A DNA stretch of 32,000 nucleotides from Dubosiella newyorkensis (GTDB taxonomy: Bacteria; Bacillota_I; Bacilli_A; Erysipelotrichales; Erysipelotrichaceae), in NCBI RefSeq assembly GCF_001945605.1, contig NZ_MPKA01000139.1, positions 32,265 to 64,264 on the forward strand. The letters are read 5' to 3'. The notes beneath the pieces were generated by a model. The model searched no databases and was not told the origin of the DNA. It worked only from the letters and a program-made list of their open reading frames with translations. The translations under genes and the position numbers were made by a program. The stretch's first letter is position 1. Every line of letters starts with the position of its first letter. Below are positions 1 through 22,850 of this stretch, piece after piece.

Positions 1-177
1 GAGTTCTTTGTCACTCCGATTTTGCTTTGTGTCGTATTCACGACGGTCATCACGCCGATCTTGTTGAAGATCGTATATAAACATAAACCAGATGATCCTG
101 ATTTTACGCATCATGGAGAAACAAAAGTTGAAAAACAAGAGATCCATGAAGCGCTCACGGATCCAATTGTCGAGTAA
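1..177 (+). CDS. C-terminal fragment of a membrane (transporter-like) protein; the gene starts upstream of the window
   Basis: Frame 1 is open from the window edge to TAA 175-177. The tail reads EFFVTPILLCVVFTTVITPILLKIVYKHKPDDPDFTHHGETKVEKQEIHEALTDPIVE, one TM helix followed by a charged tail. A hairpin terminator follows. The family cannot be assigned from 58 aa. Confidence 0.4.
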   Translation, partial: EFFVTPILLCVVFTTVITPILLKIVYKHKPDDPDFTHHGETKVEKQEIHEALTDPIVE

Positions 178-180
178 TGC

Positions 181-209
181 AGGCCTGCTCTTTTAGCAGG
201 TCTTTTATT
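181..209 (+). terminator. Rho-independent terminator
   Basis: AGGCCTGCT (181-189) pairs with AGCAGGTCT (195-203), 9 bp with one G-U, around a 5-nt loop. A T-rich tail follows. Confidence 0.6.
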
Positions 210-282
210 GTGGTAAAAAATGGCTTAAGACTTTCTAAAAAAGAATTAAAATAAAGTGGTAATTAAGAAGGAAGGAAAGATT

Positions 283-1652
283 ATGGGTTTGGCAGCATTG
301 GCGCCATGGGTCGCAGGCTTTATTTTTTGTGTTCATGTTTATCCTTGTGATCACGGAAAAGTTTGAACGTCACATCGTTACTTTAGGGTGTGGGGAGGCT
401 GTCTTGGTGATCGTGTTTGGCTTTTGTTTGCGCTCGTGGCAGGCGGCATGGTATACGCTAAACATTCAAAATATCTTTACTTTAGATTTCTGGTATTCGG
501 CATCTGAAAGTGCCAAGTCTTCTTCAGGAATCAACTGGGCGACGATCTTATTCATTGCGGGAATGATGATCATGGTGGAAGGGATAGCTTCGGCTGGTTT
601 CTTTCGTTCGCTTTGTTTGCGGTTTGCGAAACTCGTCAAGTATCGTTCGACAAGGATTTTTTTTTGTTTTTATGATCATGTCTGCCATCTTGGCGATGTT
701 TATCGATAGTATCACGGTGATCTTGTTTTTGGCGGCTGTGACTGTCGAGTTGGCGCAGCTTTTGAAATTTGATCCGGTTCCTGTGATCTTGGCGGAGATC
801 TTTTGCGCGAATCTTGGGGGTGCGGCGACGATGTGCGGCGATCCGCCTAACATTATTATCGGAACGGCTTTAGGCTATTCTTTTTCTGATTTTATAAACA
901 ATACGGGGATGATCGCTGGAATTTCGCTGTTCTTTGTCGTACTCTACTTTTGGTTTTGTTTTGCGAAGAAATTAAAAAAGAGCGAAGCGTATTTAGAACA
1001 GATCGACTCTTTTCCAGATCCATCTCAAGCGATCTTGAATAGGATGTGTTTTATTCAATCGACTTTGATTTTTTTGCTTGCGATCGTTTTGCTTGTTTCG
1101 CATGCGTATACGCATTTGACGGTCGCTTTTATTGGTGTGTTCATCGCTTTGCTCACATTAGTTTGCGCAGGCTCTCAGGCGAAAGATTTGCTGAAACAAG
1201 TCGACTATAAGACGTTGTTGTTTTTTGTGGGGTTGTTCGTGGTCGTTGGCGGTTTGGAAGAAACGGGTGTTCTAGAAATCGTGGCGGAATGGATTGCAAA
1301 TTGGTCGAATGGAAATATTTATTTGATGGTTTTGGTCATTTTATGGGTTTCTGCTGTGGCTAGCGCGGTCGTTGATAATATTCCGTTTGCGGCGACGATG
1401 ATTCCGATCATTCGGATGTTGGCGCAAAGTCAATCGGTTCCTTTGACGACATTGGCTTGGACGTTGTCGATGGGTACGGATGTTGGTGGTTCTGCCACGC
1501 CGATTGGCGCAAGCGCCAATGTGGTGGGCACGGCTGTGGCGATGAAGGCGGGTTATCCGATCTCATGGGGAAAATATTGTAGATATTGTGTGACGGCGAC
1601 GTTGCTTGTGGTCATGATTTCGATGGTTTGTATTTTTGTGCGGTATGTGTAG
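283..1652 (+). pseudogene. ArsB/NhaD-family (YbiR-like) anion permease, interrupted by two +1 frameshifts at T tracts
   Basis: ATG 283 sits behind an AAGGAAGGAAAG RBS. The reading runs MGLAALAPWVAGFIF in one frame and continues FMFILVITEKFERH...INWATILFIAGMMIMVEGIASAGFF after the T6 tract 323-328. It then continues FVFMIMSAILAMFIDSITVILFLAAV...GGSATPIGASANVVG after the T9 tract 657-665. The protein is polytopic and about 456 aa once both shifts are repaired. Confidence 0.75.
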
Positions 1653-1664
1653 AGGGAAGAGACT

Positions 1665-2253
1665 ATGATTATAACGATTTCAAGAGAGTTTGGTAGTGGG
1701 GGTCGGGATATTTCGCGGGCATTGGCTGCCCATTATGATGTGCCGTTGTATGATCAAAATATGTTGAGCGAGATCGGGATCGATGAGAGTTATGATATCG
1801 ACCGGATCAATCAATACGATGAGGCGCCTCGTTGGATGATCCGTTCTCGAACGGTTCGGGGGTTGACGAATTCGAATATCGACAATATCGCGATGAAGGA
1901 GTTTGACTTTTTGCGCGAGAAGGCGAGGGTCAAAGAATCGTTTATCGTTCTTGGTCATTGTGGGGAAAGCATTTTGAAAGAATATGATCCGATTTCGATT
2001 TTTGTGAACGCGAGCATGGATTTGCGGATCGAGCGGACGATGCAAGAGTTTGAACTCGATGAAAAAGAGGCGTATGCGCTGACCAAAAAAAACGGATCGC
2101 AATCGCAAGATGTATCATAATTACTATTGCGACAATAAATGGGATGATTCTCGGTATTATGATTTGTGTATCGAGTCTTCGACGCTTGGGGTGGACGAAA
2201 CGATCGATTTTTTGATCGATTTTATTGACCGTTGTATCGAAGCAAGAAAATAA
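1665..2253 (+). pseudogene. Cytidylate kinase-like family protein (Cytidylate_kin2 type), +1 frameshift at an A8 tract
   Basis: The N-terminus MIITISREFGSGGRDISRALAAHYDVPLYDQ matches the family P-loop region. After A8 (2085-2092) the expected C-terminus KKTDRNRKMYHNYYCDNKWDDSRYYDLCIESSTLGVDETIDFLIDFI continues in the next frame to TAA 2251-2253. The RBS is GAGGGAAGAG. Confidence 0.7.
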
Positions 2254-2296
2254 AAAAACATAATTATAAAAAAATGAATCAATCTTTTCGGATATG

Positions 2297-2305
2297 TGCT
2301 ATAAT
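2297..2305 (+). promoter_or_regulatory. Extended -10 promoter element (TGCTATAAT)
   Basis: TGnTATAAT lies at 2297-2305, about 34 nt upstream of ATG 2339. The -35 element is weak. Confidence 0.4.
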
Positions 2306-2338
2306 TTGTAAAACAAGCGCTTACAAGAAAGGTACATT

Positions 2339-2431
2339 ATGGAAAGATTGACAGAAAAAAAGGGAACTACGGCCGAAAAAACGGTCATTCTTGGTCTGCT
2401 TATGATCGCATTGGTCTTAGCGAGCCTGTAA
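2339..2431 (+). CDS. Small hydrophobic peptide (30 aa), hypothetical
   Basis: The ORF reads MERLTEKKGTTAEKTVILGLLMIALVLASL, a charged N-terminus plus one TM helix. AGAAAGG lies upstream, and the ORF sits between the promoter element and the lipoprotein gene. It is below the ORF-track cutoff. Confidence 0.3.
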   Translation: MERLTEKKGTTAEKTVILGLLMIALVLASL

Positions 2432-2496
2432 AATGGAAAGTCATGCTCAATGATGCATGGCTTTTTTCAAGAATAGAAGAGATAGAAAGGATGAAT

Positions 2497-3525
2497 ATGA
2501 AGAAATCAAAAAAATGGATCGTATGGACGATCATGATAGTTTTCGTTGTTGGCTGCTTGATCATTTTTGTTCCGAATAAAAAAGAAGTGGTGCACGATGA
2601 CTTTGATTTTTGGAAAGAAACGTATGATATTCTTGCCAAGAAAATCGGTGGGCTTAAATTTGAGGACGCCTCTTGGAAGATCGTCTTGCAGGATCGAAAG
2701 AATGCAGTGGAGGCGGAATATCCTGGTCTTTTGATCCAATATGCAGAAGACGAAAACGATCGCCAGACGAAAACGAGCTTGAGCATGAATGAAGATTCCT
2801 CAAAGGATAAAGCGGTTGAATTCGTGTATGAGGTCAGCGAATTCGATGGAGACAATTTAAAGGCGGAGAAAGAATTTGTGTTGCGCTCCACCGACTATAA
2901 AGCTGAACAATTTAAGACGATTTATCGGGTGTATGAGTATCTGAATGGCGTGTTTGATCGTACGGATACCAAGGAAGGGTCTTTGACGATCCATGGAAAT
3001 GAGGTCGATTATGACGAGCTTCCCTTGATGAAGGAGGCATTTGAGCACTTCGATCTTTTACTTGAAAATATGGAAAACGAGTTTGGTGTTTCTTATGAGG
3101 GAACAAATTTTATCGGTGTTCCTACGATCGAGTTTTCGAAAGAGATAGCGCAGGATATTCAGTCGAAAGATTATTTTAGTGAAGTCCACTATAACGCGAA
3201 AGGGTATGGGATCGTGACGTTTTTGATGGTTGACGAGGATGAAAAGGTGGCTTCGTATGGCACCTATGATGTCACGCGTCAAGGATATGGATTCCGGTAT
3301 GATATGGCTTTAGTGCCACGGACGATAGAACAATGTTTTGATTTGGAAACACCAGCGGATATTGAAAAAGAAATGGTTTATTTTGATGGCGAAAGAGCGT
3401 ATATTTATCCCGCTGATTGGAGAGATGAGGATATTCTTTCGGATGTAAATCAAGGAGCAGAGAACGCGGTGGCTGTATTAAGTACGCAAAATAAAAGCTA
3501 TACTGATTATGAAAGAATCCCCTAA
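2497..3525 (+). CDS. Putative lipoprotein or membrane-anchored protein of unknown function
   Basis: GAAAGG RBS at 2485-2490, with ATG at 2491 and 2497. The N-terminus MKKSKKWIVWTIMIVFVVGCLII has a lipobox-like VVGC. The rest is acidic and soluble with no motif I recognise. Confidence 0.7.
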   Translation: MKKSKKWIVWTIMIVFVVGCLIIFVPNKKEVVHDDFDFWKETYDILAKKIGGLKFEDASWKIVLQDRKNAVEAEYPGLLIQYAEDENDRQTKTSLSMNEDSSKDKAVEFVYEVSEFDGDNLKAEKEFVLRSTDYKAEQFKTIYRVYEYLNGVFDRTDTKEGSLTIHGNEVDYDELPLMKEAFEHFDLLLENMENEFGVSYEGTNFIGVPTIEFSKEIAQDIQSKDYFSEVHYNAKGYGIVTFLMVDEDEKVASYGTYDVTRQGYGFRYDMALVPRTIEQCFDLETPADIEKEMVYFDGERAYIYPADWRDEDILSDVNQGAENAVAVLSTQNKSYTDYERIP

Positions 3526-3557
3526 AAATCTGGGTCGCTAAAAAACATTCTCATCAG

Positions 3558-3600
3558 GAAATGTGCCAGTTGATCGCATGATTTTCTGGCATTTCATATT
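3558..3600 (+). terminator. Possible terminator hairpin at the left edge of the AT-rich block
   Basis: GAAATGTGCCAG (3558-3569) pairs with CTGGCATTTC (3586-3595) with a 2-nt bulge. The loop is long and the tail is only moderately U-rich. Confidence 0.3.
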
Positions 3601-3706
3601 TATACCCTATGCATGAGAGGTTGTTTTTATTCCTAAGACGTAGCTTTTCATTCTGTCTAATATTTGTTACTCTAATAATAAACAAAAATTAGAAAGGGCT
3701 TAAAAT

Positions 3707-4417
3707 ATGAAAATATTAATCTGTGATAACAATCCTGATGATATTCATCATCTATCCCATTTACTTAACGAGTATTGCGAGTATAGACAACTTGTGATTC
3801 AAGACATAAAGATTTGTCATCATTCAAATGAAGTATTCCGTTCAATTCAGGATTGTGATCTCTTATTTCTGGATGTTGAATTAGATGACGAAAACGGAAT
3901 TGATATAGGGATGCAGATCAAAACAATGAATTGTCGCATTAGGATCATTATCACATCTGCTTTTCAGGATTATCTAATTGCCGGATATAAAATCAACGCT
4001 TGTCGTTATTTACTTAAGCCGATAGAAAAAATTGAATTTTTTATCGAAATGGATTCGATCATGAATGATTATTTTAAAAATCAGCAGGGATTTTATGAAA
4101 GAACAATTCAGCCAGGAAAGATTTTTTATCATCAGATTCTTTTTATTGAAGCATATAATCGAAAAACACAGATCACATTAGAAAACGGAAAATCAGGTAT
4201 CGTGAAGCATTCATTATCCGAGTGGATCGAAATACTAAAAGAACAGCCTTTTGATCAATCCCATAAGTCTGTTGTTGTCAATTTCAAAGCAATCCAAACA
4301 ATTGGTAAACAGGACATTTATTTACACAATGGACAAACCGTTCCGGTTTCGCGCCATTATCGAAAAAGCTTTTTGCAGAACTATATCAACTATTTACAAT
4401 GCGAGGATTACGAATGA
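3707..4417 (+). CDS. LytTR/AlgR-family response regulator (AgrA/ComE-like)
   Basis: The receiver domain has LLFLDVEL (phospho-acceptor Asp), IIITSAF and YLLKP. The acidic pocket reads CDNN rather than DD/DE. The C-terminal LytTR domain reads FIEAYNRKTQITLENGKSGIVKHSLSEWIEIL...SHKSVVVNFKAIQTI...VPVSRHYRKSF. The RBS is AGAAAGGG. Confidence 0.9.
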   Translation: MKILICDNNPDDIHHLSHLLNEYCEYRQLVIQDIKICHHSNEVFRSIQDCDLLFLDVELDDENGIDIGMQIKTMNCRIRIIITSAFQDYLIAGYKINACRYLLKPIEKIEFFIEMDSIMNDYFKNQQGFYERTIQPGKIFYHQILFIEAYNRKTQITLENGKSGIVKHSLSEWIEILKEQPFDQSHKSVVVNFKAIQTIGKQDIYLHNGQTVPVSRHYRKSFLQNYINYLQCEDYE

Positions 4418-5652
4418 TATTTTTATTTTTGTTCAACACTATTTATCTAGTCATAGCTTTTTATATAGGAAAAGAAATTATATCCGCAAGCATTTCTATA
4501 AAAAAGAACAGATTGTTTCTTATAGGGTTGTGGTTATTCTTGAATTTGGGAAATATTCCTATGTTTAGCTCCTGGAACGAAATCTTGGTTTTTTTTGCTT
4601 CGATTGCCTTATACCGCTTTCTGTTTAAACTTCCATGGTCAAAAGTTGTTCCTATTGCTTTTTGCTTTTTTTCAATCGCAAGTATTACAAAATATATTGG
4701 TGGATTATTATCTATATTCGAGATGTCTTTTAATGCACAAAACGAGGTATATACGAATGTATATTTTTTGACGCTCGCTTTGGCGATTCTTACTCTTTGG
4801 GGTTTTATAAAAATACTGGTCCATACTTTCCAGTTGTTTGATCAAAAAGTGCTTCCTTCTTATAGCTGGATTTTTATATTTCTTCCACTCTCTATTTTTG
4901 CTTTATTTTTAAACGCAGAAGATTATTTCAAAGTACTGGAATCACAACGCATAGTTATCGCACTGTTTCTCATTTTTGTCGTGTCCAATTTCATCTTGTC
5001 CTTTTTGCACTCTAAACTTACATCTGTAATGGAAATTGAAACCGAACTTGGAATTCAAAAGGAAAAAGAAAAACAGTTACTAAATCAAATAGAATTTTTA
5101 AATCAGCAACATAAATTAAACATGTCATTTGTTCATGAACTTTTACAAAAAGAGAATAAAATTGTCTCTTTAATAAAAGAAGGGAATGAACGCGAAGCAA
5201 TATCTACACTAGAATCCTTGGCACAAAATACATTTCAGGAATTTAATGGAATTCTTACCGAATCAAACGTTTTCAATGCGATCATTACGCAATTCCATCC
5301 TCGAATTCATCAGGCAGGATTTCAATTAAGAACGACAATTTCGATCAATGATTTTGAATTTATGAATTTATCGGAACAATATGATTTTTTTTATCATTTG
5401 ATTGATAATCTCCTTCATTGCGCAGAAAAACGAATTACTAAAACAGATCAATCAATTATTATCACTTGTAAACGCAACAAATCTTTTCGTAAAATTGAAT
5501 GCTTCATTCCGTTATCCACTCAAAACTTCGATTGTGATTTTGATGATAATTTTGCTTCTAAATATCATTTAAAAATACAGCATCAAAAACTGGAAGAGTA
5601 TAAAAAAGAAAAAATAGAATTGTTATTGAGCGATTTACAACCTGTTAAGTAA
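4414..5652 (+). CDS. AgrC/HPK10-like polytopic membrane sensor protein with an apparently degenerate ATPase domain
   Basis: ATG 4414 forms an ATGA overlap with the regulator stop and follows a GAGGA RBS. Six or seven predicted TM helices are followed by a coiled linker. The H-box-like segment is MSFVHELLQKENKIVSLIKEGNEREAISTLESL and the N-box-like segment is FFYHLIDNLLHCAEK. No DxGxG or GxGxGL motifs are visible in the last ~60 aa. Confidence 0.8.
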   Translation: MIFLFLFNTIYLVIAFYIGKEIISASISIKKNRLFLIGLWLFLNLGNIPMFSSWNEILVFFASIALYRFLFKLPWSKVVPIAFCFFSIASITKYIGGLLSIFEMSFNAQNEVYTNVYFLTLALAILTLWGFIKILVHTFQLFDQKVLPSYSWIFIFLPLSIFALFLNAEDYFKVLESQRIVIALFLIFVVSNFILSFLHSKLTSVMEIETELGIQKEKEKQLLNQIEFLNQQHKLNMSFVHELLQKENKIVSLIKEGNEREAISTLESLAQNTFQEFNGILTESNVFNAIITQFHPRIHQAGFQLRTTISINDFEFMNLSEQYDFFYHLIDNLLHCAEKRITKTDQSIIITCKRNKSFRKIECFIPLSTQNFDCDFDDNFASKYHLKIQHQKLEEYKKEKIELLLSDLQPVK

Positions 5653-5706
5653 AATAAGTACCTGTTGTTCCTGATTGCTGGATATAAATAAATAGTCATT
5701 TATAAT
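5639..5706 (+). promoter_or_regulatory. Direct repeats ACCTGTT (x2, 20-bp period) plus a TATAAT -10: candidate LytTR-dependent promoter
   Basis: aACCTGTTAAG (5639-5649) and tACCTGTTGTT (5659-5669) resemble the AgrA half-site ACAGTTAAG. TATAAT lies at 5701-5706 with no good -35, as expected for an activator-dependent promoter. Confidence 0.3.
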
Positions 5707-5788
5707 AGATTTAACAAATAATTATTTGGATAACAGAAAATCTCTCATACCGGTTTCAGAGATCCATAGTTAGAAAAGGAAAGCTATT

Positions 5789-6315
5789 ATGAATACTATA
5801 AAAAAATAAGTCAAATAATCATAACTACTATTTTTTGTGTTTCTCTTAGTTCCGAACATATTTTTGCAACCGAAAGGGTAGATCCTGAAGTTTCAGATAA
5901 TCCGGAAACTTCCACAAACGCAGAACCATATAATGAAGACACGAGAATGTATTCATTGGATGAATATATGAAAACATTTTCTCAGGATATGTCTTCCAAT
6001 GAAATAATCTTGCCTGACTATTCATCTTTGGATTTAGGTCTCGCACCATTGAGTTATTTACGCTATACTTCCTATATCTATGATGCGAGCGGCAATCAAC
6101 TTGGTACAGTTACACTCGATGCAGAAACCGCAATAATTGGTGGAAGACCACAATTCGTATATGATAAGTGTTACTTAGGTCATCCATCTGCTTATAACGG
6201 ATGGCCTTGCGTAGACTCAAGTCTATCTTTCTCGGGAGACCGAATTGTTGTTTATGCTACATTCTCAAATGGATATTTTCAACAAAGCGGTTCAGCTGTA
6301 TTTTATCCTCAATAA
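5789..6315 (+). pseudogene. Secreted protein of unknown function (~175 aa when repaired), frameshifted in an A7 tract inside the signal peptide
   Basis: ATG 5789 follows an AAAAGGA RBS and stops after 6 codons. The frame of ORF 5947-6315 is open back to 5770 and, with one more A (or two fewer) in A7 5800-5806, reads MNTIKKISQIIITTIFCVSLSSEHIFA/TERVDPEV..., a Sec-type signal peptide. There is no ATG, GTG or TTG in that frame before 5947. Confidence 0.55.
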
Positions 6316-6351
6316 ATCGTACTTCTCTAATAAATAAGATAAATTTAATCA

Positions 6352-6513
6352 ATGAAAACTAAAAAGCATATTTTTGCTATTCTTATTTTCATCCTGATTA
6401 TCGTGGGAATCTTAGCAGGTTATTTTCGTTCCTTTCAAAATACCCAAAGTATAGATGATCAGAAAATGTATACCCTTGATGAGTATCAGGAAAAATTTGA
6501 CCATAGCAAATGA
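6352..6513 (+). CDS. Small exported or membrane peptide (53 aa), hypothetical
   Basis: The ORF reads MKTKKHIFAILIFILIIVGILAGYFRSFQNTQSIDDQKMYTLDEYQEKFDHSK: an N-terminal signal or TM segment and a hydrophilic tail carrying the same MYxLDEYxxxF motif as the preceding gene. A terminator follows immediately. No clear RBS. Confidence 0.35.
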   Translation: MKTKKHIFAILIFILIIVGILAGYFRSFQNTQSIDDQKMYTLDEYQEKFDHSK

Positions 6514-6527
6514 AAAGATCTTCAAAA

Positions 6528-6556
6528 GAATCGGCCTATCCCCGGTCGATTTTTTA
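6528..6556 (+). terminator. Rho-independent terminator closing the LytTR block
   Basis: ATCGGCC (6530-6536) pairs with GGTCGAT (6544-6550) with one G-U. The loop is 7 nt and a T6 run follows. Confidence 0.6.
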
Positions 6557-6585
6557 ATTCGAAAATAGGAGGTGGCTACCCTATA

Positions 6586-6729
6586 TTGAACACCACTGCT
6601 CTTGTATTTACGGAGATTCCTTTTTCAAAAAGAAAAGCAGGCAGTCTGATCAATTCTTCCAAAGGCAAGATTTATATCCACAATCACGCGGATCTTGAAC
6701 GGGTCAGAATGATCCTGTCCTGTTTGTGA
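6586..6729 (+). CDS. Possible 47-aa ORF behind a strong RBS, hypothetical (possibly a truncated remnant)
   Basis: AGGAGGTGG at 6567-6575 is followed by TTG 6586. The ORF reads MNTTALVFTEIPFSKRKAGSLINSSKGKIYIHNHADLERVRMILSCL. It overlaps antisense ORF fragments, so it is uncertain which strand, if either, is coding. Confidence 0.25.
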   Translation: MNTTALVFTEIPFSKRKAGSLINSSKGKIYIHNHADLERVRMILSCL

Positions 6730-6998
6730 AATGTATTTGAAGTCTGGTTTTACCGAAATGCGCAAAGGGATCAACAAATACTTTAAATGGTAAACGTTGC
6801 TTTTAGCCCAGCCGACCTGCATAGACAGTAAATGTAGGAGTCATGTTCATCCCAAGTTCTTTGCAGACAGTCGATGTAGCCATTTTTACTCATCATTTTC
6901 AACGATTCTTCTCTCCTAGCTTGGCGGCTTCTATTTAGAATCCTTAAGCATCTATCATGCGTTTTTCTTAAAAACTTTCTACAATAGAAATAGAACAA
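6625..6998 (-). pseudogene. Fragmented minus-strand reading frames, possibly a decayed gene
   Basis: An AGGAGA RBS (complement of ~6914-6919) is followed by short frames: MMSKNGYIDCLQRTWDEH..., MATSTVCKELGMNMTPTFTVYAGRLG and MQVGWAKSNVYHLKYLLIPLRISVKPDFKYISQTGQDHSDPFKIRVIVDIN. They hand over to one another in three frames. No family recognised. Confidence 0.2.
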
Positions 6999-7012
6999 AG
7001 GAGAATAAGAAT

Positions 7013-7306
7013 ATGGCAGAAGATAAAATCATCAAAGACAATTCAAAAGAAGATCTTGAAGCGATGGAAGCATTCGATACGGCAGTTCAATTAGAACCAA
7101 AGACCGATGTTTGGGTATGCACAGTATGTGGATGGATGTATGATCCAAAATTAGGATTGCCAGCAAAAGGAATCGAACCAGGAACAAGCTTTGAAGACCT
7201 TCCATACGATTTTGTATGTCCACTATGTCACGCGCCAAAATCCGATTTTGTGATGAAAGTCGAAGTCAATCCAGACGATGGCGGTGAATCGATCACGAAC
7301 GCGTAG
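7013..7306 (+). CDS. Rubredoxin-domain protein
   Basis: [47 protein letters not shown] carries both CxxC pairs and the rubredoxin core. There are extra stretches of ~33 aa at the N-terminus and ~17 aa at the C-terminus. The RBS is AAAGGAG. Confidence 0.9.
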
Positions 7307-7344
7307 TAAAAAAAAGAAAAATAATCAATTTCATGTTTCTTTCT

Positions 7345-7377
7345 AGACGTCATTCCTTGAGTTGACGTCTTTTTTTA
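7345..7377 (+). terminator. Rho-independent terminator (rubredoxin gene)
   Basis: AGACGTCA (7345-7352) pairs with TGACGTCT (7363-7370) and a T7 run follows. Confidence 0.7.
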
Positions 7378-7404
7378 ATAAAAAAACCAGCACGAGGCTG
7401 GTTT
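7378..7404 (-). terminator. Rho-independent terminator (minus-strand 90-aa gene)
   Basis: AACCAGC (7385-7391) pairs with GCTGGTT (7397-7403). On the minus strand a T-run follows (complement of the A-run 7378-7386). Confidence 0.6.
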
Positions 7405-7419
7405 AGATCAAACGATCCC

Positions 7420-7692
7420 TTATTTTTCCATGTCTTCTACGACTTTTAAGGCTTTTTCCAACAAAGCGATTTTATCGGCTTCTACTTGAGCGGCTTTTTC
7501 ATCGCCGTTTTCTTTATGGCGTTTTTCCCAGCCCTTTAAAGAACCAATGCGATCATCGATGCGGTCTTTACTGTTTTGAGCGTATTTTCCAGTGGATTCA
7601 TAATGCTCTACAAGATCGGCAACGACTTCATCTCCATACTCTGTTTGGCCAATCGCTTTTTTCAAGTTGGCTTCAAAATCTTTTTTGTTCAT
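7420..7692 (-). CDS. Hypothetical small helical, charged protein (90 aa)
   Basis: The ORF has an AGGAGG RBS and its own terminator. It reads MNKKDFEANLKKAIGQTEYGDEVVADLVEHYESTGKYAQ... with no recognisable motif. Confidence 0.7.
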   Translation of the reverse strand: MNKKDFEANLKKAIGQTEYGDEVVADLVEHYESTGKYAQNSKDRIDDRIGSLKGWEKRHKENGDEKAAQVEADKIALLEKALKVVEDMEK

Positions 7693-7859
7693 GGTGAATA
7701 CCTCCTATTGAATGTCAACATTCTAAAATAAAGGATTATAAGAGTAAATTAATTTGACCTTGATAAATCAAGCGTCCTTCTTCTTTCTTTATCAAGCAAG
7801 GCTTTTTCTTTTTTTTAAGCAAGTGCGTATAATATAACCGATTTAAATGGGAGGATCGT

Positions 7860-8852
7860 ATGGCTTTAGAACATTCTTTAGAAAGAATCACCTATATAAA
7901 TAACGGAAAGAAAGAACAACTGCAAGTAGCCGATCTCATCTGGGCGTTCTATCATCAAAATGGACTCTATCTTATCAGCAAAGAACACCATATCTATGTC
8001 TTTGAAATCAACAAAGATAAAGTCGATTCGATTTACGAAGCCCTTCAAAAAAGCAATCCATCGATCTATACAGGCGCATTGAAAGGACATCGCATTGGCC
8101 TTCGCTCTCTTCCCAATACGCGCGATTATGGCGGCATGCAAACTACCGATGGACGCTTTATCCTGCCAAAAAAGCTGATTCGTTCCGGAGAACTCCATAA
8201 AGCATCCAAAGAAGACAAGAAAACGCTCTTAAATGAATACGATCTTAAAACAATTGTTGACCTTCGCTCCGAAGCGGAAAGACTTTTGCAACCCGATCCG
8301 ATCATGCTTCCCGTCATGCATTATGACGATACAGCCCGAGAATTATCTGAACTCGATCTTTTGCAGCACGATCTAAAAGCAAAAGGCATCACAGGCACGC
8401 TCTTTGAAGCAAAAGAACTCATGGAAAAACTCTATGAAGATCTTGTCGTCAGCAAACAAGGAATCAATTGCTATAAGAAGCTGTTTCGGATCTTGCTCGA
8501 CCACGAAGAAGGCGCCTTTCTCTGGCATTGCACCCAAGGAAAAGATCGAACCGGCATTGGCGCGATGCTGATCTTGAGCGCTCTAGGCGTATCCAAAGAA
8601 GACATCTACAAAGACTATGAACAAAGCTCCTTATATTTAAAAGGGCAAAAAGAAGACTTGCTGCTGAAGTGCGAAAAACACCCCGAATGGAAAGAAGGAG
8701 TCGATGCCTGGTGCGAAGCCAAAAAGAAATACCTAGACATCGCCTATGAAAACATCAAAGACGCCTACGGAAGCGTCGATCGCTATTTGAAAGAAGCGCT
8801 CGAACTCAGCCAAGAAGATATCACCACACTACAAGACCGTTTGCTTGTATAA
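7860..8852 (+). CDS. Protein-tyrosine phosphatase (Y_phosphatase3 family) with an extra ~80-aa N-terminal domain
   Basis: NTRDYGG (family NxRDxGG motif) and the CX5R P-loop HCTQGKDRTG are present. The RBS is GGGAGGA. Confidence 0.85.
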   Translation: MALEHSLERITYINNGKKEQLQVADLIWAFYHQNGLYLISKEHHIYVFEINKDKVDSIYEALQKSNPSIYTGALKGHRIGLRSLPNTRDYGGMQTTDGRFILPKKLIRSGELHKASKEDKKTLLNEYDLKTIVDLRSEAERLLQPDPIMLPVMHYDDTARELSELDLLQHDLKAKGITGTLFEAKELMEKLYEDLVVSKQGINCYKKLFRILLDHEEGAFLWHCTQGKDRTGIGAMLILSALGVSKEDIYKDYEQSSLYLKGQKEDLLLKCEKHPEWKEGVDAWCEAKKKYLDIAYENIKDAYGSVDRYLKEALELSQEDITTLQDRLLV

Positions 8853-20303: not shown

Positions 20304-20972
20304 ATGTATAAAATTATGATTATCGAAGATGACAAGATCATCGCTAGAGAAATGAAAACATTTCTTGAATCGTGGGATTATCAAGGAATTCTGGTCCATG
20401 ATTTTCATCAAGTTCTCGAGGAATGGCAAAACACGAATCCCGATCTGATTTTGATGGATATCTCTTTGCCCTATAAAAACGGTTATTATTGGACAGAACA
20501 GATCCGAAAGTACTCCAAAGTCCCGATCATTTTTATATCGAGCCGCAACGACAATATGAATATCGTGATGGCGCTCTCGCAAGGCGGGGATGATTTTATC
20601 GCTAAGCCGTTCGATCTGCAAGTCCTCCTTTATAAGATCAAAGCGCTTTTACGACGAACCTACGATTTTTCCGGAAAGACAGAATGGCTCGAACAAAACG
20701 GGGTACGCTTCAATATGGATGAAAATCTTGTCACGTATCAAGATCGATCTGTCGAATTGACCAAAAACGAAGGCAAGATCCTACGATTGTTGATGGAAAA
20801 AAAAGATAAGATCGTCCGGCGTGAAGAATTGATGGAATATTTATGGAAGACGGATTATTATGTCGATGAAAACGCCTTAAGCGTCAATATCAATCGCCTC
20901 CGGAAAAAATTGGAGCGGATCGGGATCCACGACTTTATCCAAACGAAAAAAGGATTGGGCTATCTTGTATGA
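20304..20972 (+). CDS. OmpR-family response regulator, BceR-like
   Basis: Receiver domain (IIEDD, LILMDISLP, AKPF) plus a winged-helix output (LTKNEGKILRLL...). The gene starts 9 nt after polC and forms an ATGA overlap with the kinase gene. Confidence 0.85.
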   Translation: MYKIMIIEDDKIIAREMKTFLESWDYQGILVHDFHQVLEEWQNTNPDLILMDISLPYKNGYYWTEQIRKYSKVPIIFISSRNDNMNIVMALSQGGDDFIAKPFDLQVLLYKIKALLRRTYDFSGKTEWLEQNGVRFNMDENLVTYQDRSVELTKNEGKILRLLMEKKDKIVRREELMEYLWKTDYYVDENALSVNINRLRKKLERIGIHDFIQTKKGLGYLV

Positions 20973-21967
20973 AGTCGTTTTGGAAGTATCTTTCCAATCG
21001 AAAAAGGATCGTATGGATGCTGCTCAGCTTCTGGCTCACGGCTCTATTGATCACCTTTTTATATAGCCTGACATGGGAAGCGTTTTGGTATGGAAGCGCG
21101 ATCGCCGCAGTCTTTCTCCTTTTATTCATGAGCGTCGATCTTTATCGCTTTCAAGAACAAAACAAAGTATGGAAGCTCGTCCTCAACCAAGAAAAGCTCC
21201 TCGATGTCGATCTAAGCAAATGCACGAGCGACCCCTTGCTGCAGGAGGTGTTTAAAAAAATCGAGAAAGAAGAGTTTGAACGGCAAGAAAACGAGCATGC
21301 CAAGTATGGGCGTTTGATCGATTACTTTACGCTTTGGACTCATCAAATCAAGATCCCGATCTCGGCGATGGAGCTTTTACTCAAAAACGATCCCGAACGG
21401 GTGGTGGATCTTAAAGAAGAAACACTTCAAATCAAACGATATACCGATATGGTGATGGCGTATTTGCGTTTGGAGAGTGAAAGCGGCGATTACGTGTTTG
21501 AAAATGTCGATCTTGACGAGGTGATCGCCTCTGTCATTCGGGAGTTTTCGATCGAATTCATTTATCGCAAGATCCCGATCGACTTTCAAAAGACAAATCT
21601 TATCGTACTTTCCGATCGAAAATGGCTTCGCTTCGCGTTAGAACAGTTTCTATCCAACGCGATCAAATATTCAGAAGGACAGAAGATCACGATCCGAAAT
21701 ATTGGCTATGATCTCTTTATCGAAGATCGAGGGATCGGGATCTTGAAGCGAGATCTTGAGCGGATACGCGAAAAAGGCTATACGGGACACAATGGCCGTC
21801 TCTACTCCAAAGAATCGAGCGGCTTAGGCTTGTATTTAAGCGACATTGTGCTCAAACGCCTCCATCATCCTTATACGATTGAATCCAAAGTTGGAAAAGG
21901 AACGACCATCATCCTCTCCTTGCAGCGACATGATCTATTCAAAGACGACTTAGACCTTGGATCCTAA
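20969..21967 (+). CDS. Intramembrane-sensing histidine kinase, BceS-like
   Basis: Two N-terminal TM helices are separated by a minimal loop. The H-box is WTHQIKIPISAM and the HATPase motifs are NAIKYS, EDRGIGI and GLGLYL. Confidence 0.85.
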   Translation: MKSFWKYLSNRKRIVWMLLSFWLTALLITFLYSLTWEAFWYGSAIAAVFLLLFMSVDLYRFQEQNKVWKLVLNQEKLLDVDLSKCTSDPLLQEVFKKIEKEEFERQENEHAKYGRLIDYFTLWTHQIKIPISAMELLLKNDPERVVDLKEETLQIKRYTDMVMAYLRLESESGDYVFENVDLDEVIASVIREFSIEFIYRKIPIDFQKTNLIVLSDRKWLRFALEQFLSNAIKYSEGQKITIRNIGYDLFIEDRGIGILKRDLERIREKGYTGHNGRLYSKESSGLGLYLSDIVLKRLHHPYTIESKVGKGTTIILSLQRHDLFKDDLDLGS

Positions 21968-21986
21968 CATTCAAGGTCTTTTTCTT
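21953..21986 (+). terminator. Terminator after the kinase gene
   Basis: GACCTTG (21953-21959) pairs with CAAGGTC (21972-21978) around a 12-nt loop. A T-rich tail follows. Confidence 0.5.
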
Positions 21987-21991
21987 TCGCG

Positions 21992-22057
21992 TTTGTAAGA
22001 TTCTTGACTTTTTTGTAAGCCAAATCGATGGGAGGCATTTTTTGAACTCTTTATAAT
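21992..22057 (+). promoter_or_regulatory. Candidate BceR-type operator (TTTGTAAG x2) and -10 of the ABC transporter promoter
   Basis: TTTGTAAG occurs at 21992-21999 and 22012-22019, a 20-bp period. TATAAT lies at 22052-22057 with a poor -35. TGTAA-containing repeats are typical of Bce-type regulator sites. Confidence 0.4.
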
Positions 22058-22082
22058 AAAAGCAGTTAAGGAGGAAAATCGT

Positions 22083-22850
22083 ATGCCATTATTGGAAGTT
22101 AAAAATATAAAAAAAGTGTATACATCGCGGTTAGGGGTCCATCAAGTCCAAGCGCTTGAAAACGTGAATTTTACGGTGGATGAAGGGGAATATGTCGCGA
22201 TCATGGGAGAATCGGGGGCCGGAAAAACGACGCTGCTCAATATTTTGGCCGCGCTTGATAAACCGACGAGCGGCTCGATCTTGCTCAACGGAAAGGATAT
22301 GACCACGATCAGAGATTCTTCGATCTCCGCTTTCCGCCGCAAACATCTAGGTTTCGTGTTTCAAGACTTTAATTTATTAGAAACATTCAACAATCAAGAC
22401 AATATCTTTTTGCCACTCGTCTTATCGAATGAGAAGTACAGTCAAATGAAAAAGAAGATCCAGCCTCTTGCCAAAGAGCTAGGGATCCAAGATCTGCTCA
22501 AAAAATTTCCATACGAGATCAGTGGCGGACAAAAACAGCGTGTCGCCGTCGCAAGAGCGCTGATTACAGAACCTGAACTCATTTTGGCCGATGAGCCTAC
22601 AGGCGCCTTGGATTCAAGAAGCACAGAAGAGCTATTGCGCTTGTTTAAGCAAGTCAATGAAAGAGGGCAGACGATCTTGATGGTCACCCATTCGATCTTG
22701 GCGGCCTCGCATGCCAAACGCGTCTTGTTTATCAAAGATGGGATCGTCTTTCATCAAATCTATCGAGGTGAAAAAAACCAAGACGAGATGTATCAAATGA
22801 TTTCGGATACGCTCTCCTTGCTGACAAGGGAGGAATCTTTCCATGTCTAA
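22083..22850 (+). CDS. ABC transporter ATP-binding protein, BceA-like
   Basis: Walker A GESGAGKTT, signature SGGQKQR and Walker B LILADEPT are present. The RBS is AAGGAGG. Confidence 0.9.
   Translation: MPLLEVKNIKKVYTSRLGVHQVQALENVNFTVDEGEYVAIMGESGAGKTTLLNILAALDKPTSGSILLNGKDMTTIRDSSISAFRRKHLGFVFQDFNLLETFNNQDNIFLPLVLSNEKYSQMKKKIQPLAKELGIQDLLKKFPYEISGGQKQRVAVARALITEPELILADEPTGALDSRSTEELLRLFKQVNERGQTILMVTHSILAASHAKRVLFIKDGIVFHQIYRGEKNQDEMYQMISDTLSLLTREESFHV

Follow-up and report, generated by a model that had tools for sequence, protein, structure and literature searches.

Dubosiella newyorkensis, a mouse-gut bacterium, carries an AT-rich block of about 3 kb with an agr-type sensor/regulator pair. 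The reading favoured here, with slightly better than even confidence, is that an agr-derived pair parted from AgrB/AgrD and came to control an export operon of two genes, and that the resulting module has been moved horizontally and is gated by a poly-A tract. The observation behind the original prediction is confirmed and its interpretation is partly supported. The features of the block and its border, within the 32-kb stretch of DNA that was analysed (the window), are as follows.

3561..6556, plus strand: the whole AT-rich block (GC, GATC and blastn), found in two Dubosiella species at different loci.
3564..3591, plus strand: hairpin TGCCAG-N16-CTGGCA at the left block edge (sequence reading).
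3707..4417, plus strand: REC-LytTR response regulator, 236 aa (Pfam PF00072, 5.6e-11, and PF04397, 3e-16).
4414..5652, plus strand: AgrC-like sensor, 412 aa (AF2 model, PDB fold match and column conservation).
5640..5669, plus strand: direct repeat ACCTGTTAAG-N10-ACCTGTTGTT, a candidate LytTR binding site (unique, exact and conserved).
5679..5706, plus strand: promoter-like TGGATA, 16 nt, TATAAT (consensus scan, 10/12 matches).
5789..5809, plus strand: start of the secreted-protein gene, ATG AAT ACT ATA AAA AAA TAA (sequence).
5806..6318, plus strand: main part of the secreted-protein gene, -1 frame (translation; in-frame homologues P0004 and P0306).
6352..6513, plus strand: 53-aa protein with an N-terminal TM anchor and one copy of the family motif (KMYTLDEYQEKFDHSK; alignment and conservation).
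6530..6556, plus strand: intrinsic-terminator-like hairpin and T-run at the right block edge (sequence scan; end of OPF54 homology).
6646..6775, plus strand: remnant similar to the OPF54 IS66-family element, just outside the block (tblastx to L017 4838-4995).

The block had been described as compositionally foreign, AT-rich and poor in GATC, and the counts bear this out. GC is 0.316 in 3540-6560 versus 0.437 in the rest of the window, and no other 3-kb stretch of the 32 kb is as low in GC (31.6% versus 43.7%). GATC is about three times rarer inside (5.3 per kb) than outside (16.0 per kb); outside it is 4.2-fold over-represented (463 seen, 109 expected), and inside there are 16 sites for 8.8 expected.

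The block (3561-6556) is a discrete unit. Alignment placed it at another locus, between unrelated flanks, in Erysipelotrichaceae bacterium OPF54 (L017), a second Dubosiella species ('uncultured Dubosiella sp.' in NCBI naming). By blastn, window positions 3592-6556 are 87.4% identical to OPF54, and the homology stops at 6556, the right block edge. Homology to another locus, L016, begins at 3561, and the left-edge hairpin is kept there despite a different upstream gene. IS66-family DNA adjoins the block in both species: OPF54 carries a complete element (TnpB_IS66, 7.9e-36; DDE_Tnp_IS66, 8.8e-78), and the remnant beside the window copy resembles the end of orf1 and the start of TnpB of that element. 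The block would thus be a horizontally moved cassette that has IS66-family DNA alongside. Gene order within it is as originally predicted, all on the plus strand: regulator, sensor, promoter, secreted ORF, 53-aa ORF and terminator. The four genes correspond to no characterised locus type, as Pfam, NCBIfam, PADLOC and PHROGs match the generic regulator only.

The sensor gene overlaps that of the regulator by ATGA, with an alternative start at an upstream ATG (4399), and its product combines six or seven TM helices with a DHp helix pair, which contains His241, and a fold resembling a catalytic domain. Its proposed likeness to AgrC holds by fold and by weak HPK10 sequence links, but no Pfam or NCBIfam model is matched, including any histidine-kinase model. 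The AF2 model (pLDDT 85) has AgrC (6e95/6e52) as its top PDB fold match, followed by DesK and Spo0B; the weakest matches in the sequence search are HPK10 kinases of the canonical type, which carry LLDNAIEA and HGxGL motifs. With the REC-LytTR regulator, these links uphold the description of the block as agr-like. What had been missed is the degenerate catalytic domain: in an alignment with canonical HPK10 kinases, the N-box Asn and all G-boxes are absent. Among 61 sensor-family sequences His241 and Asn278 are invariant, and position 332 (N-box) is L, I or F in most, not a conserved Asn. At 50% identity the sensor clade comprises at least 120 representatives; DxGxG occurs in none of 98 full-length members, a G2-like box is missing from 93 of the 98, and one clade member matches Pfam SPOB_a. 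From alignment and model, we infer that the sensor has lost ATP binding.

In the regulator, Asp56, Thr83 and Lys104 are invariant in an alignment with partner regulators of the sensor clade, and the acid pocket reads D7-N8, which might mean that phosphorylation is impaired altogether. Since His241 and these three regulator residues are kept and the N-box and G-boxes are gone, the sensor would most likely control how far the regulator is phosphorylated by acting as a signal-controlled phosphatase or phosphotransfer partner, not as an autokinase. Spo0B and pseudo-histidine kinases such as DivL likewise have a DHp helix pair and a catalytic-like domain without ATP binding, and the Spo0B structures 1f51 and 1ixm are among the sensor's fold matches. 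However, those proteins are soluble or work in phosphorelays, whereas the block's sensor is a receptor with 7 TM helices that has a single LytTR regulator as its partner.

As had been noted, the block encodes neither AgrB, AgrD nor a C39 ABC transporter, and the rest of the 32 kb holds none either. It goes too far, however, to presume that pheromone genes are the normal neighbours of such pairs: no agrBD adjoins the AgrCA-like pairs VirS/VirR and RgaS/RgaR (PMC10327067), and 26 of 50 sensor-clade loci lack AgrB. These 50, mostly metagenomic, are the clade loci with enough upstream DNA; in the other 24, AgrB lies directly upstream, as it does of the regulator in the relatives L018, L019 and L022.

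The block resembles the agr system of S. aureus in the REC-LytTR architecture of its regulator, in a multi-TM sensor whose cytoplasmic part has AgrC as best structural match, in the agrB-regulator-sensor operons of the sensor's relatives and in a direct-repeat site that closely precedes a promoter whose -35 is poor. It differs in the lack of AgrB and AgrD, in the order regulator then sensor, in a sensor without the conserved N-box Asn and G-boxes and in its output, an export operon and not an RNAIII-like RNA. The DNA preceding the regulator-sensor operon holds no LytTR-type repeat, so that a P2-type feedback loop is not visible. With VirS/VirR of Clostridium perfringens and RgaS/RgaR of Clostridioides difficile the block shares an AgrC-like sensor, a LytTR regulator and the lack of adjacent agrBD; these systems activate small gene sets, including small hypothetical ORFs, through paired direct repeats, and the VirS signal comes from an unlinked locus (PMC10327067). 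In contrast to them, the Dubosiella clade lacks ATP-binding motifs, and the Dubosiella pair is joined to its target operon in one mobile block, where the repeat has the core CCTGTT and a 20-bp period.

Repeats resembling LytTR boxes had been predicted at the promoter of this operon; they exist, but their location is corrected to 5640-5649 and 5660-5669, overlapping the sensor stop codon. ACCTGTT-N13-ACCTGTT (5640-5666) has no second exact occurrence in the 32 kb and is kept in OPF54, in L016 and in every D. newyorkensis assembly checked; the intergenic regions of relatives hold no matching repeat. LytTR repeats usually have a period of 21 bp and the core CAGTT, against 20 bp and CCTGTT here. 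The promoter, with TATAAT at 5701-5706 as -10, is conserved in OPF54. Judging from the repeats themselves, the LytTR regulator would bind at 5640-5669 and, when phosphorylated, activate the weak -35 promoter; from the -10 box, the repeats are expected roughly 45-75 bp upstream of the transcription start.

The predicted Sec-type secreted protein of about 175 aa is encoded downstream, but not as an intact ORF, a frameshift that had escaped notice. From the ATG at 5789 translation reaches TAA (5807) after six codons, and everything from the signal peptide onwards is read in the -1 frame; the A7 run at 5800-5806 forms an A_AAA_AAA heptamer with a zero-frame stop. With the frame restored, the 175-aa product consists of a signal peptide (...HIFA|TE), a linker, the motif MYSLDEYMKTF and a C-terminal beta domain (GGRPQFVYDKCYLG...). 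For its AF2 model (pLDDT 84.8) the best PDB E-value is 0.04, and BFVD gave no match. The search for its family gave 90 matches, with one to four tandem motif copies per member.

A7 was found at eight loci (the window, six D. newyorkensis loci and OPF54), which stand for at least six D. newyorkensis assemblies and the OPF54 isolate. Nine sister-species assemblies have A8, which is in frame, with an otherwise identical protein; in the sister species the in-frame P0306 is present on 140 contigs and the A7-type P0305 on 143. In D. newyorkensis A7 alleles alone were seen, with gene calls of 122 and 115 aa on about 600 contigs. Compared with OPF54, the secreted ORF has a dN/dS of 0.078 over its whole length and of 0.028 in the part that begins with the motif. 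Because the sister species commonly carries in-frame A8 alleles and dN/dS is as low as about 0.08, the tract is likely, on these alleles, to be an A7/A8 run-length switch of the secreted-protein gene; in D. newyorkensis the gene may, instead of switching, be locked off or read by frameshifting. In phase-variation contingency loci, too, the start codon of a gene for a secreted or surface protein is closely followed by a short homopolymer, and there likewise a one-base length difference between otherwise identical alleles sets the reading frame. The block differs in that its tract is short (7 or 8 A) and the off length is the only one in one species.

It is improbable that A7 is a site of programmed -1 ribosomal frameshifting or transcriptional slippage and not a mutational switch. 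By that account some ribosomes slip on A_AAA_AAA before TAA into the -1 frame, making MNTIKK-ISQ..., and A7 alleles are thereby expressed at a set low level. Both species do have A7, the zero-frame TAA and an X_XXY_YYZ heptamer between differing flanking codons (ACT ATA versus ATT GTA), and some 600 D. newyorkensis contigs carry A7 alone, yet the ORF is under purifying selection. Against this, A8 is about as common as A7 in the sister species with an identical protein, a signature of slipped-strand length variation, and other homopolymers of the genome (T8/T9 in a permease gene and in the sensor) also vary between strains.

Natural populations of D. newyorkensis often carry a broken sensor gene. 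Lesions among strains include a T8 tract lengthened to T9 at 4588, an added A at 5174 and insertions of repeat elements at 4969, at 5411 and near residue 385, and NCBI entries include truncated sensors of 196-368 aa. Such frequent disruption could mean that the module is dispensable. With a sensor lacking kinase motifs and A7 frameshifts in all D. newyorkensis assemblies examined, these lesions could also describe a decaying relic of no present function, its agrBD lost, its kinase dead, its effector frameshifted and its sensor repeatedly broken. That is very doubtful, since all four ORFs are under strong purifying selection (dN/dS 0.03-0.21; regulator 0.09, sensor 0.128 against OPF54) across about 12% DNA divergence, and this selection extends to the out-of-frame signal peptide. 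Within the species, differences in the secreted ORF are three synonymous and no non-synonymous. The degenerate catalytic domain is a clade-wide trait, with an invariant His and partner regulators, and not local decay, and many assemblies retain an intact sensor.

Alignment shows the 53-aa product to be homologous to the N-terminal part of the secreted family, which the original prediction missed. Its equivalent in the Allobaculum cassette is 55 aa long, has one motif copy and begins with a lipobox-like signal peptide, so that it is probably lipid-anchored. In the model of the secreted protein the motif region (pLDDT 93) forms a strand (54-56) and a helix (57-64), and on the strength of this pLDDT the motif would pack on the beta domain. 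If so, the small protein would probably bind that domain in trans, acting as its anchor or neutraliser.

A self-contained quorum-sensing loop with a Sec-exported signal had been suggested. Here the 53-aa product, and perhaps the secreted pro-region too, would be the precursor of an MY(S/T)LDEY peptide (candidate region DDQKMYTLDEYQEKFDHSK), freed by proteolysis; the 7-TM sensor would detect it as a linear peptide and in response switch on the operon encoding it. The sole LytTR-type repeat promoter indeed drives the peptide gene, and does so directly in L016, a deletion variant that retains the 53-aa gene and has lost the large one. Every variant keeps the peptide gene while the large gene is switched off or deleted. 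The last 19 codons of the 53-aa gene have five synonymous and no non-synonymous changes relative to OPF54, and the tandem motif copies in the family resemble multi-copy pheromone precursors. Moreover, the Allobaculum cassette adjoins a regulator of 420 aa that has an XRE-type HTH as well as faint matches to TPR, and that may be an RRNPP-type peptide receptor. Nevertheless, the loop seems a poor candidate. The motif is a high-confidence structural element of the secreted protein, the motif family occurs without the sensor (all 85 sensor-family loci examined; an R. torques plasmid; beside a LysR regulator) and the regulator-sensor operon has no repeat of its own. The small proteins look tethered, by a TM helix or a lipobox-like signal peptide, with no signal-peptidase site evident. 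Known linear HPK10 pheromones are cationic and amphipathic, unlike the acidic 53-aa peptide.

LytTR/HPK10 systems typically control bacteriocin-plus-immunity operons, and the output pair could, as originally suggested, be a bacteriocin-like toxin and its immunity protein. The secreted beta-domain protein would then antagonise other bacteria, and the tethered motif-only peptide would shield the producer by occupying the toxin site normally covered by the toxin's own pro-region motif. One family member is the apparent cargo of a mobilisable plasmid of about 7 kb in Ruminococcus torques, and a C39-peptidase fragment in chimeric family members hints at bacteriocin-type neighbours. The small gene persists where the effector has been lost or turned off, like an orphan immunity gene, and the high frequency of sensors that have lost their function recalls cheater dynamics. 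Such a pair is possible but unlikely: neither fold nor family matches a known toxin or bacteriocin, no dedicated exporter is present and P0008 is followed by a cytoplasmic Zn-ribbon protein in place of a small motif partner. The class II bacteriocin and competence regulons (Blp, Com, Pln, Spp and Cbn) share with the block an HPK10-like sensor, a LytTR regulator, direct-repeat promoters, an operon for exported small proteins and frequent natural loss-of-function variants. The block differs in lacking a double-glycine leader peptide and a C39 ABC transporter, in products with a Sec-type signal or TM anchor and in a sensor without kinase motifs.

In the favoured reading of a rewired, poly-A-gated export module, the 7-TM AgrC-like sensor would detect an extracellular cue. 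If AgrC, VirS and those clade members that are linked to AgrB are a guide, this is most likely a peptide from elsewhere in the genome or from other bacteria. The transcript would give a Sec-secreted beta-rich protein of an uncharacterised family and a 53-aa membrane-anchored protein displaying the same motif. The secreted protein would be in frame with A8 and out of frame with A7, the state of the window copy. The sensor/regulator pair itself appears to be agr-derived, having lost both the pheromone-making genes and the ATP-binding motifs.

The stretch from 3540 to 6560 has a GC content of 0.316, against 0.437 in the remaining window, and is the lowest-GC 3-kb stretch in the window profile. 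GATC density over the 32-kb window falls from 16.0/kb outside the block to 5.3/kb inside it, where 16 sites were seen and 8.8 expected. The original prediction of an AT-rich, GATC-poor block was thus borne out, and the ORF list, Pfam and a consensus scan recovered the single co-directional unit, in the gene order proposed.

Features of the block
3707-4417, + strand, response regulator gene (ORF list, Pfam)
4414-5652, + strand, sensor gene (ORF list)
5640-5669, + strand, conserved direct repeat ACCTGTTAAG-N10-ACCTGTTGTT, candidate LytTR site
beginning nine bases after the repeat end, + strand, promoter TGGATA-16-TATAAT (consensus scan)
5701-5706, + strand, promoter -10 element TATAAT (consensus scan)
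between the promoter and the 53-aa ORF, + strand, secreted-protein ORF (ORF list)
6352-6513, + strand, 53-aa ORF (ORF list)
6530-6556, + strand, terminator (consensus scan)

In the host DNA (1-3539 and 6561-32000), 463 GATC sites were seen against 109 expected from base composition. This 4.2-fold over-representation, far above the level in the block, suggests that selection for GATC in Dubosiella is strong, for example for Dam-type methylation or mismatch-repair signalling.

Exact-protein matches assign the window to Dubosiella newyorkensis, a mouse-gut member of the Erysipelotrichaceae. The sole relative among 185,579 species genomes was Erysipelotrichaceae bacterium OPF54 (the sister species), listed at NCBI as 'uncultured Dubosiella sp.'. 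The OPF54 locus (L017) aligns with 3592-6556 at 87.4% identity and the flanks are unrelated; in a second strain of that species the alignment begins at 3561. The block lies between a 360-aa gene and a rubredoxin gene in the window and between a 555-aa gene and a PTS gene in the OPF54 species. In OPF54 itself, and in no other strain of its species, a complete IS66-family element (TnpB and a DDE transposase; L017 2907-5100) stands immediately left of the block on the opposite strand. To the right of the block in the window, 6646-6775 is a remnant resembling the orf1/TnpB junction of that element. Sharing of the block at 87.4% between unrelated flanks, with IS66-family DNA adjoining, marks it as a discrete unit that was moved or captured. 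The presence/absence comparison called for in the original prediction was run within D. newyorkensis, and every assembly retrieved carries the block at this locus. We conclude that the block is a genuine regulatory cassette, mobile, derived from agr and non-canonical. A role in anti-phage defence or a phage origin was rejected: PADLOC gave no match and PHROGs matched only the generic regulator.

The regulator has REC (PF00072) and LytTR (PF04397) domains, as in AgrA. Asp56, Thr83 and Lys104 are invariant in five aligned partner regulators, and the acid pocket is D7-N8 in four of the five, where DD or DE is usual. Against the NCBIfam AgrA equivalog it scores 22.8 bits, far under the cut-off of 400, and is therefore not an AgrA orthologue. 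Of the 26 differences that separate D. newyorkensis strains within the block, the regulator gene carries 19, of which 10 are non-synonymous and 9 synonymous. Most of these lie in the receiver domain (3780-4253), and the other block genes are almost identical; this suggests that the receiver-domain segment is recombined or fast-evolving. At position 4001 the window has T (Cys99), where most other assemblies have C (Arg).

Sequence alone did not classify the 412-aa sensor. It matched neither Pfam (PF14501, HATPase_c_5, included) nor NCBIfam, and a 61-sequence profile run against all PDB chains found no solved histidine kinase, so this approach was dropped. A word-indexed search of 5.8 billion proteins gave matches confined to its own and the sister species. 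The link to HPK10 kinases came solely from a fold search and an exhaustive search of 1.84 billion representatives, the latter yielding 124 relatives, mostly of 400-420 aa and 20-30% identity. The AF2 model (pLDDT 85) has 6-7 TM helices, the last continuing into a long DHp helix with His241, followed by a second helix and an alpha/beta domain, an architecture shared with AgrC-type receptors. Its top PDB fold matches were the cytoplasmic domain of Staphylococcus aureus AgrC (6e95, 6e52), then DesK, other kinases and Spo0B.

The sensor alignment shows no variation at His241 (His in 61 of 61 sequences) or at Asn278. Unlike HPK10 kinases (GHKL, PF14501), the sensor has neither the N-box LLDNAIEA nor the G2-box GxGLG used in ATP binding. 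Most clade members have L, I or F at the N-box position, the last 110 residues hold no conserved glycine, and PF14501 matches weakly in only 3 of 61 members. DxGxG is found in none of the 98 full-length family members, and 93 have no G2-like box. The other five are the weakest matches, longer, with textbook LLDNAIEA and HGxGL motifs, and so form a canonical HPK10 outgroup. Together with the AgrC fold match and the invariant histidine, this outgroup indicates that the clade derives from AgrC-type kinases. The clade has kept the phospho-histidine and lost the ATP lid, and its members presumably cannot autophosphorylate.

The agr ancestry is also seen in gene order. The relatives at 43% and 30% identity lie in agrB-regulator-sensor operons, and 85 clade loci (80 of them metagenomic) were compared. 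Of the 76 with a full-length sensor, 65 have a LytTR regulator immediately before the sensor gene. In the 50 loci with an upstream LytTR regulator and at least 1.5 kb of upstream DNA, AgrB immediately precedes the regulator in 24 and is absent within 3.5 kb in 26. The end of agrB is only about 30 bp from the regulator gene in the AgrB-linked loci (24 AgrB-positive among L018-L119, for example L044, L054 and L066). These loci showed no AgrD-like ORF of at least 30 aa, either before agrB or after the sensor. A 25-aa AgrD candidate in L022, the locus of the clade member P0011, was judged unconvincing. There (4213-7882) P0011 and its AgrB adjoin a 67-aa ORF (4213-4416; the gene call starts at 4237 and gives 59 aa) and a LanM-type lanthipeptide synthetase (DUF4135 and LANC_like); this agr-like pair would possibly control a lantibiotic cluster.

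The absence from the block of AgrB and of a C39-peptidase ABC transporter, claimed from the sequence, holds across 32 kb. Block ORFs had no Pfam match to AgrB (PF04647), tblastn with the AgrB proteins of two relatives found nothing in the window or in L017, and no C39-peptidase (PF03412) transporter occurs in or near the block or elsewhere in the window. Genes of either kind lying just outside the block were thereby rejected. The only small ORF of the block lacks the AgrD propeptide layout (amphipathic leader, Cys/Ser ring core, acidic tail): its 53-aa product has a true TM anchor, no Cys and homology to the N-terminus of the secreted family. Class II bacteriocin and competence regulons differ in having a double-glycine leader and a C39-peptidase ABC exporter, which the block does not. 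The window has just one ABC system, which is Bce-like (ABC_tran and FtsX, 22083-24831). It belongs to a module (20304-24831), unrelated to the block, in which an OmpR-type regulator and a small histidine kinase accompany an ABC ATPase and an FtsX-type permease of 662 aa. In HdrRM/BrsRM-type systems the LytTR regulator has no receiver and is paired with a membrane inhibitor, whereas the block regulator keeps its receiver (D56, T83, K104).

VirS/VirR and RgaS/RgaR are AgrCA-like pairs without adjacent agrBD (PMC10327067), so missing pheromone genes are not in themselves unprecedented. In this type an AgrC-like sensor and a LytTR regulator act on targets via paired direct repeats (PMC10327067). 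The block has the same parts, with regulator binding to its repeats predicted. It is not a new category but a variant of orphan agr-type systems: an orphan pair from a clade that has lost its ATP-binding motifs, joined to an export operon specific to the lineage, in which the main gene has a poly-A tract of differing length between alleles.

The intergenic region before the secreted-protein gene is 94% conserved between the two species. ACCTGTT-N13-ACCTGTT occurs exactly once in the window, as the repeat at 5640-5669, and its core is one base off the CAGTT-type cores of AgrA and VirR boxes. The layout is that of LytTR activators, with paired direct repeats abutting a weak -35. Upstream of the regulator gene (3707) the motif is absent even with up to 3 mismatches, and the regulator-sensor operon thus does not have the autoinduction repeats of agr. 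The repeat was not found in intergenic regions of sensor relatives, so the assignment as a binding site draws on the block itself; the regulator probably binds at 5640-5669.

The secreted-protein gene is split between two frames. A good Shine-Dalgarno sequence (GAAAAGGAAAG) precedes ATG 5789, which opens the frame MNTIKK with a stop at 5807, and the -1 frame is open from 5806 to 6318 and encodes a signal peptide (ISQIIITTIFCVSLSSEHIFA/TE) and the remainder of the protein. Their junction is an A7 run forming the heptamer A_AAA_AAA. The window copy has A7, as do six D. newyorkensis loci and the isolate OPF54; nine independent sister-species assemblies have A8, giving an intact 175-aa protein. 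Assembly error was rejected as the source of the frameshift because A7 is shared by an isolate and by Illumina MAGs that are independent of one another, and nine other assemblies agree on A8. A non-canonical start in the ORF frame was also rejected: there is a TAG at 5767, none of ATG, GTG and TTG occurs before 5947, and the position of the Shine-Dalgarno sequence suits ATG 5789.

In the sister species the in-frame form (P0306) is found on 140 contigs and the A7-type call with identical downstream sequence (P0305) on 143. Tract length is polymorphic, and a 5' coding homopolymer varying between otherwise identical alleles sets the frame, as expected of a phase-variable gene. Slipped-strand phase variation of the A7/A8 tract is the simplest reading. 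Programmed frameshifting or transcriptional slippage may instead act on A7, especially in D. newyorkensis, where only truncated 122- and 115-aa calls occur (about 600 contigs). The run matches the -1 slippery form X_XXY_YYZ (A_AAA_AAA at 5800-5806), followed by TAA, with the -1 frame open to 6318. The secreted ORF has a dN/dS between species of 0.078 overall and 0.028 from the motif to the end; its signal-peptide segment has 0.17 and no stop, and within D. newyorkensis there are 3 synonymous and 0 non-synonymous differences. The low dN/dS and lack of non-synonymous changes indicate that the gene is under selection. A CitMHS/ArsB-type permease gene in the window is likewise split (329-709 and 624-1652) by a T9 run near 657, with another T-run near 323, and a metagenomic contig (L003) has T8 and an intact gene of 464 aa. 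Homopolymer length polymorphism is therefore not confined to the block.

A profile search placed the secreted protein in a family of 90 unannotated proteins from Allobaculum, [Ruminococcus] torques, Lachnospiraceae, Hungatella and Anaerosporobacter. Members combine a Sec signal peptide with a motif of 15-20 residues ([FLM][LYM][ST][LI]x[EDS]Y[N..]xx[YFW]), present in one to four tandem copies, and a conserved domain of about 80 residues (GTxTLQYQTxIxGGRPQFxYDTCYL...FSGDxIxVYF). In the AF2 model of the secreted protein (pLDDT 84.8) the motif is a short strand and helix (pLDDT 93) beside an all-beta domain, and no significant PDB or viral fold match was found. The 53-aa product, which aligns with the family's N-terminal 70 residues, has only a TM anchor and one motif copy; its last 19 residues are identical between species, with five synonymous changes. 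A sister-species deletion variant (L016 11227-11540, Logan SRR33454328) has lost the large secreted-protein gene, and its small motif-peptide gene is joined directly to the Shine-Dalgarno sequence and the LytTR-repeat promoter.

In Allobaculum sp. JKK-2023 (L023 6022-8676) a secreted-family gene is followed by a 55-aa ORF with one motif copy, encoding a lipobox-like signal peptide (MTFRKFCLITLSSSMLFVYG/C). A neighbouring divergent regulator of 420 aa, which has an XRE-type HTH and faint TPR matches, is reminiscent of RRNPP peptide receptors. Two modes of tethering one motif, TM anchor and lipobox, argue for a surface-displayed docking element, which would be an anchor or a neutraliser, or possibly the precursor of a signal. 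On a rather unlikely reading, the one to four donor-motif copies ([FLM]x[ST]Lx[ED]Y...) of secreted subunits would fit the family's own beta domain, and the membrane- or lipid-tethered motif-only peptide would be the cell-surface base, or a signal. The pair would then serve tethering or polymerisation by strand complementation, or provide a Sec-dependent peptide signal.

A recurrent linkage of the secreted family to the sensor family was rejected, as the two adjoin in none of 85 sensor-family loci; the combination is lineage-specific in Dubosiella. The R. torques gene lies on a small Mob plasmid (CP146723.1; L024/L025), a mobilisable element of about 7 kb with MobC/relaxase that encodes a four-motif member of 240 aa and was apparently assembled as a tandem dimer. 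In two family members (P0187 and P0199) the N-terminus is replaced by a Peptidase_C39 fragment (MQKKVPYVAQLGNMDCSIACMTMLFRYYG...). They could result from contig chimerism or be genuine fusions, and they point tentatively to bacteriocin exporters as neighbours in some genomes.

The sensor gene has been disrupted independently several times in natural D. newyorkensis (loci L003, L005-L010, L026 and L028; protein P0003). The lesions are a T8 to T9 change at 4588 (five assemblies), an added A at 5174 (one assembly), a repeat-element end (GTAAGCGGGAAATAAAACAG...), which we take to be IS66-like, at 4969 (six contigs, two lineages), and a second, different end (GGCAGTGTCAATATTTTTGTG...) at 5411 and near residue 385. 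Among NCBI entries there are truncated sensor versions of 196-368 aa. Natural loss of function is frequent in agr and blp loci, and by analogy the sensor disruptions, A7 state and deletion variant resemble that pattern. To judge from these variants, namely the A7/A8 polymorphism, the deletion and the repeated loss of the sensor, selection in the gut seems to be strong and fluctuating.

The receptor clade, widespread in gut Firmicutes, keeps its phospho-histidine and would have lost ATP binding, as a pseudokinase branch of agr-type quorum sensing with about half its members still AgrB-coupled. It is rather unlikely that two linked novelties meet here, namely 7-TM AgrC-like receptors without ATP binding that act as ligand-gated phosphatases or phosphotransfer proteins for LytTR regulators, and a motif-docking export pair in Dubosiella.

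A full-text literature search (quorum sensing; AgrB/AgrD in Erysipelotrich*) found no account of cell-cell signalling in Dubosiella. The secreted family is new: it has about 90 members, some of them plasmid-borne, repeats of a motif at the N-terminus and a tethered partner that has the motif alone. The AgrC-like clade is unannotated; its clusters at 50% identity number at least 120 and come mostly from gut metagenomes. If it does not autophosphorylate, part of the annotated agr-type quorum sensing in gut Firmicutes uses another mechanism. D. newyorkensis is an abundant mouse-gut commensal that features in many mouse-gut studies and is culturable, so the signal, the way the sensor works and what the output pair does can be tested there directly.
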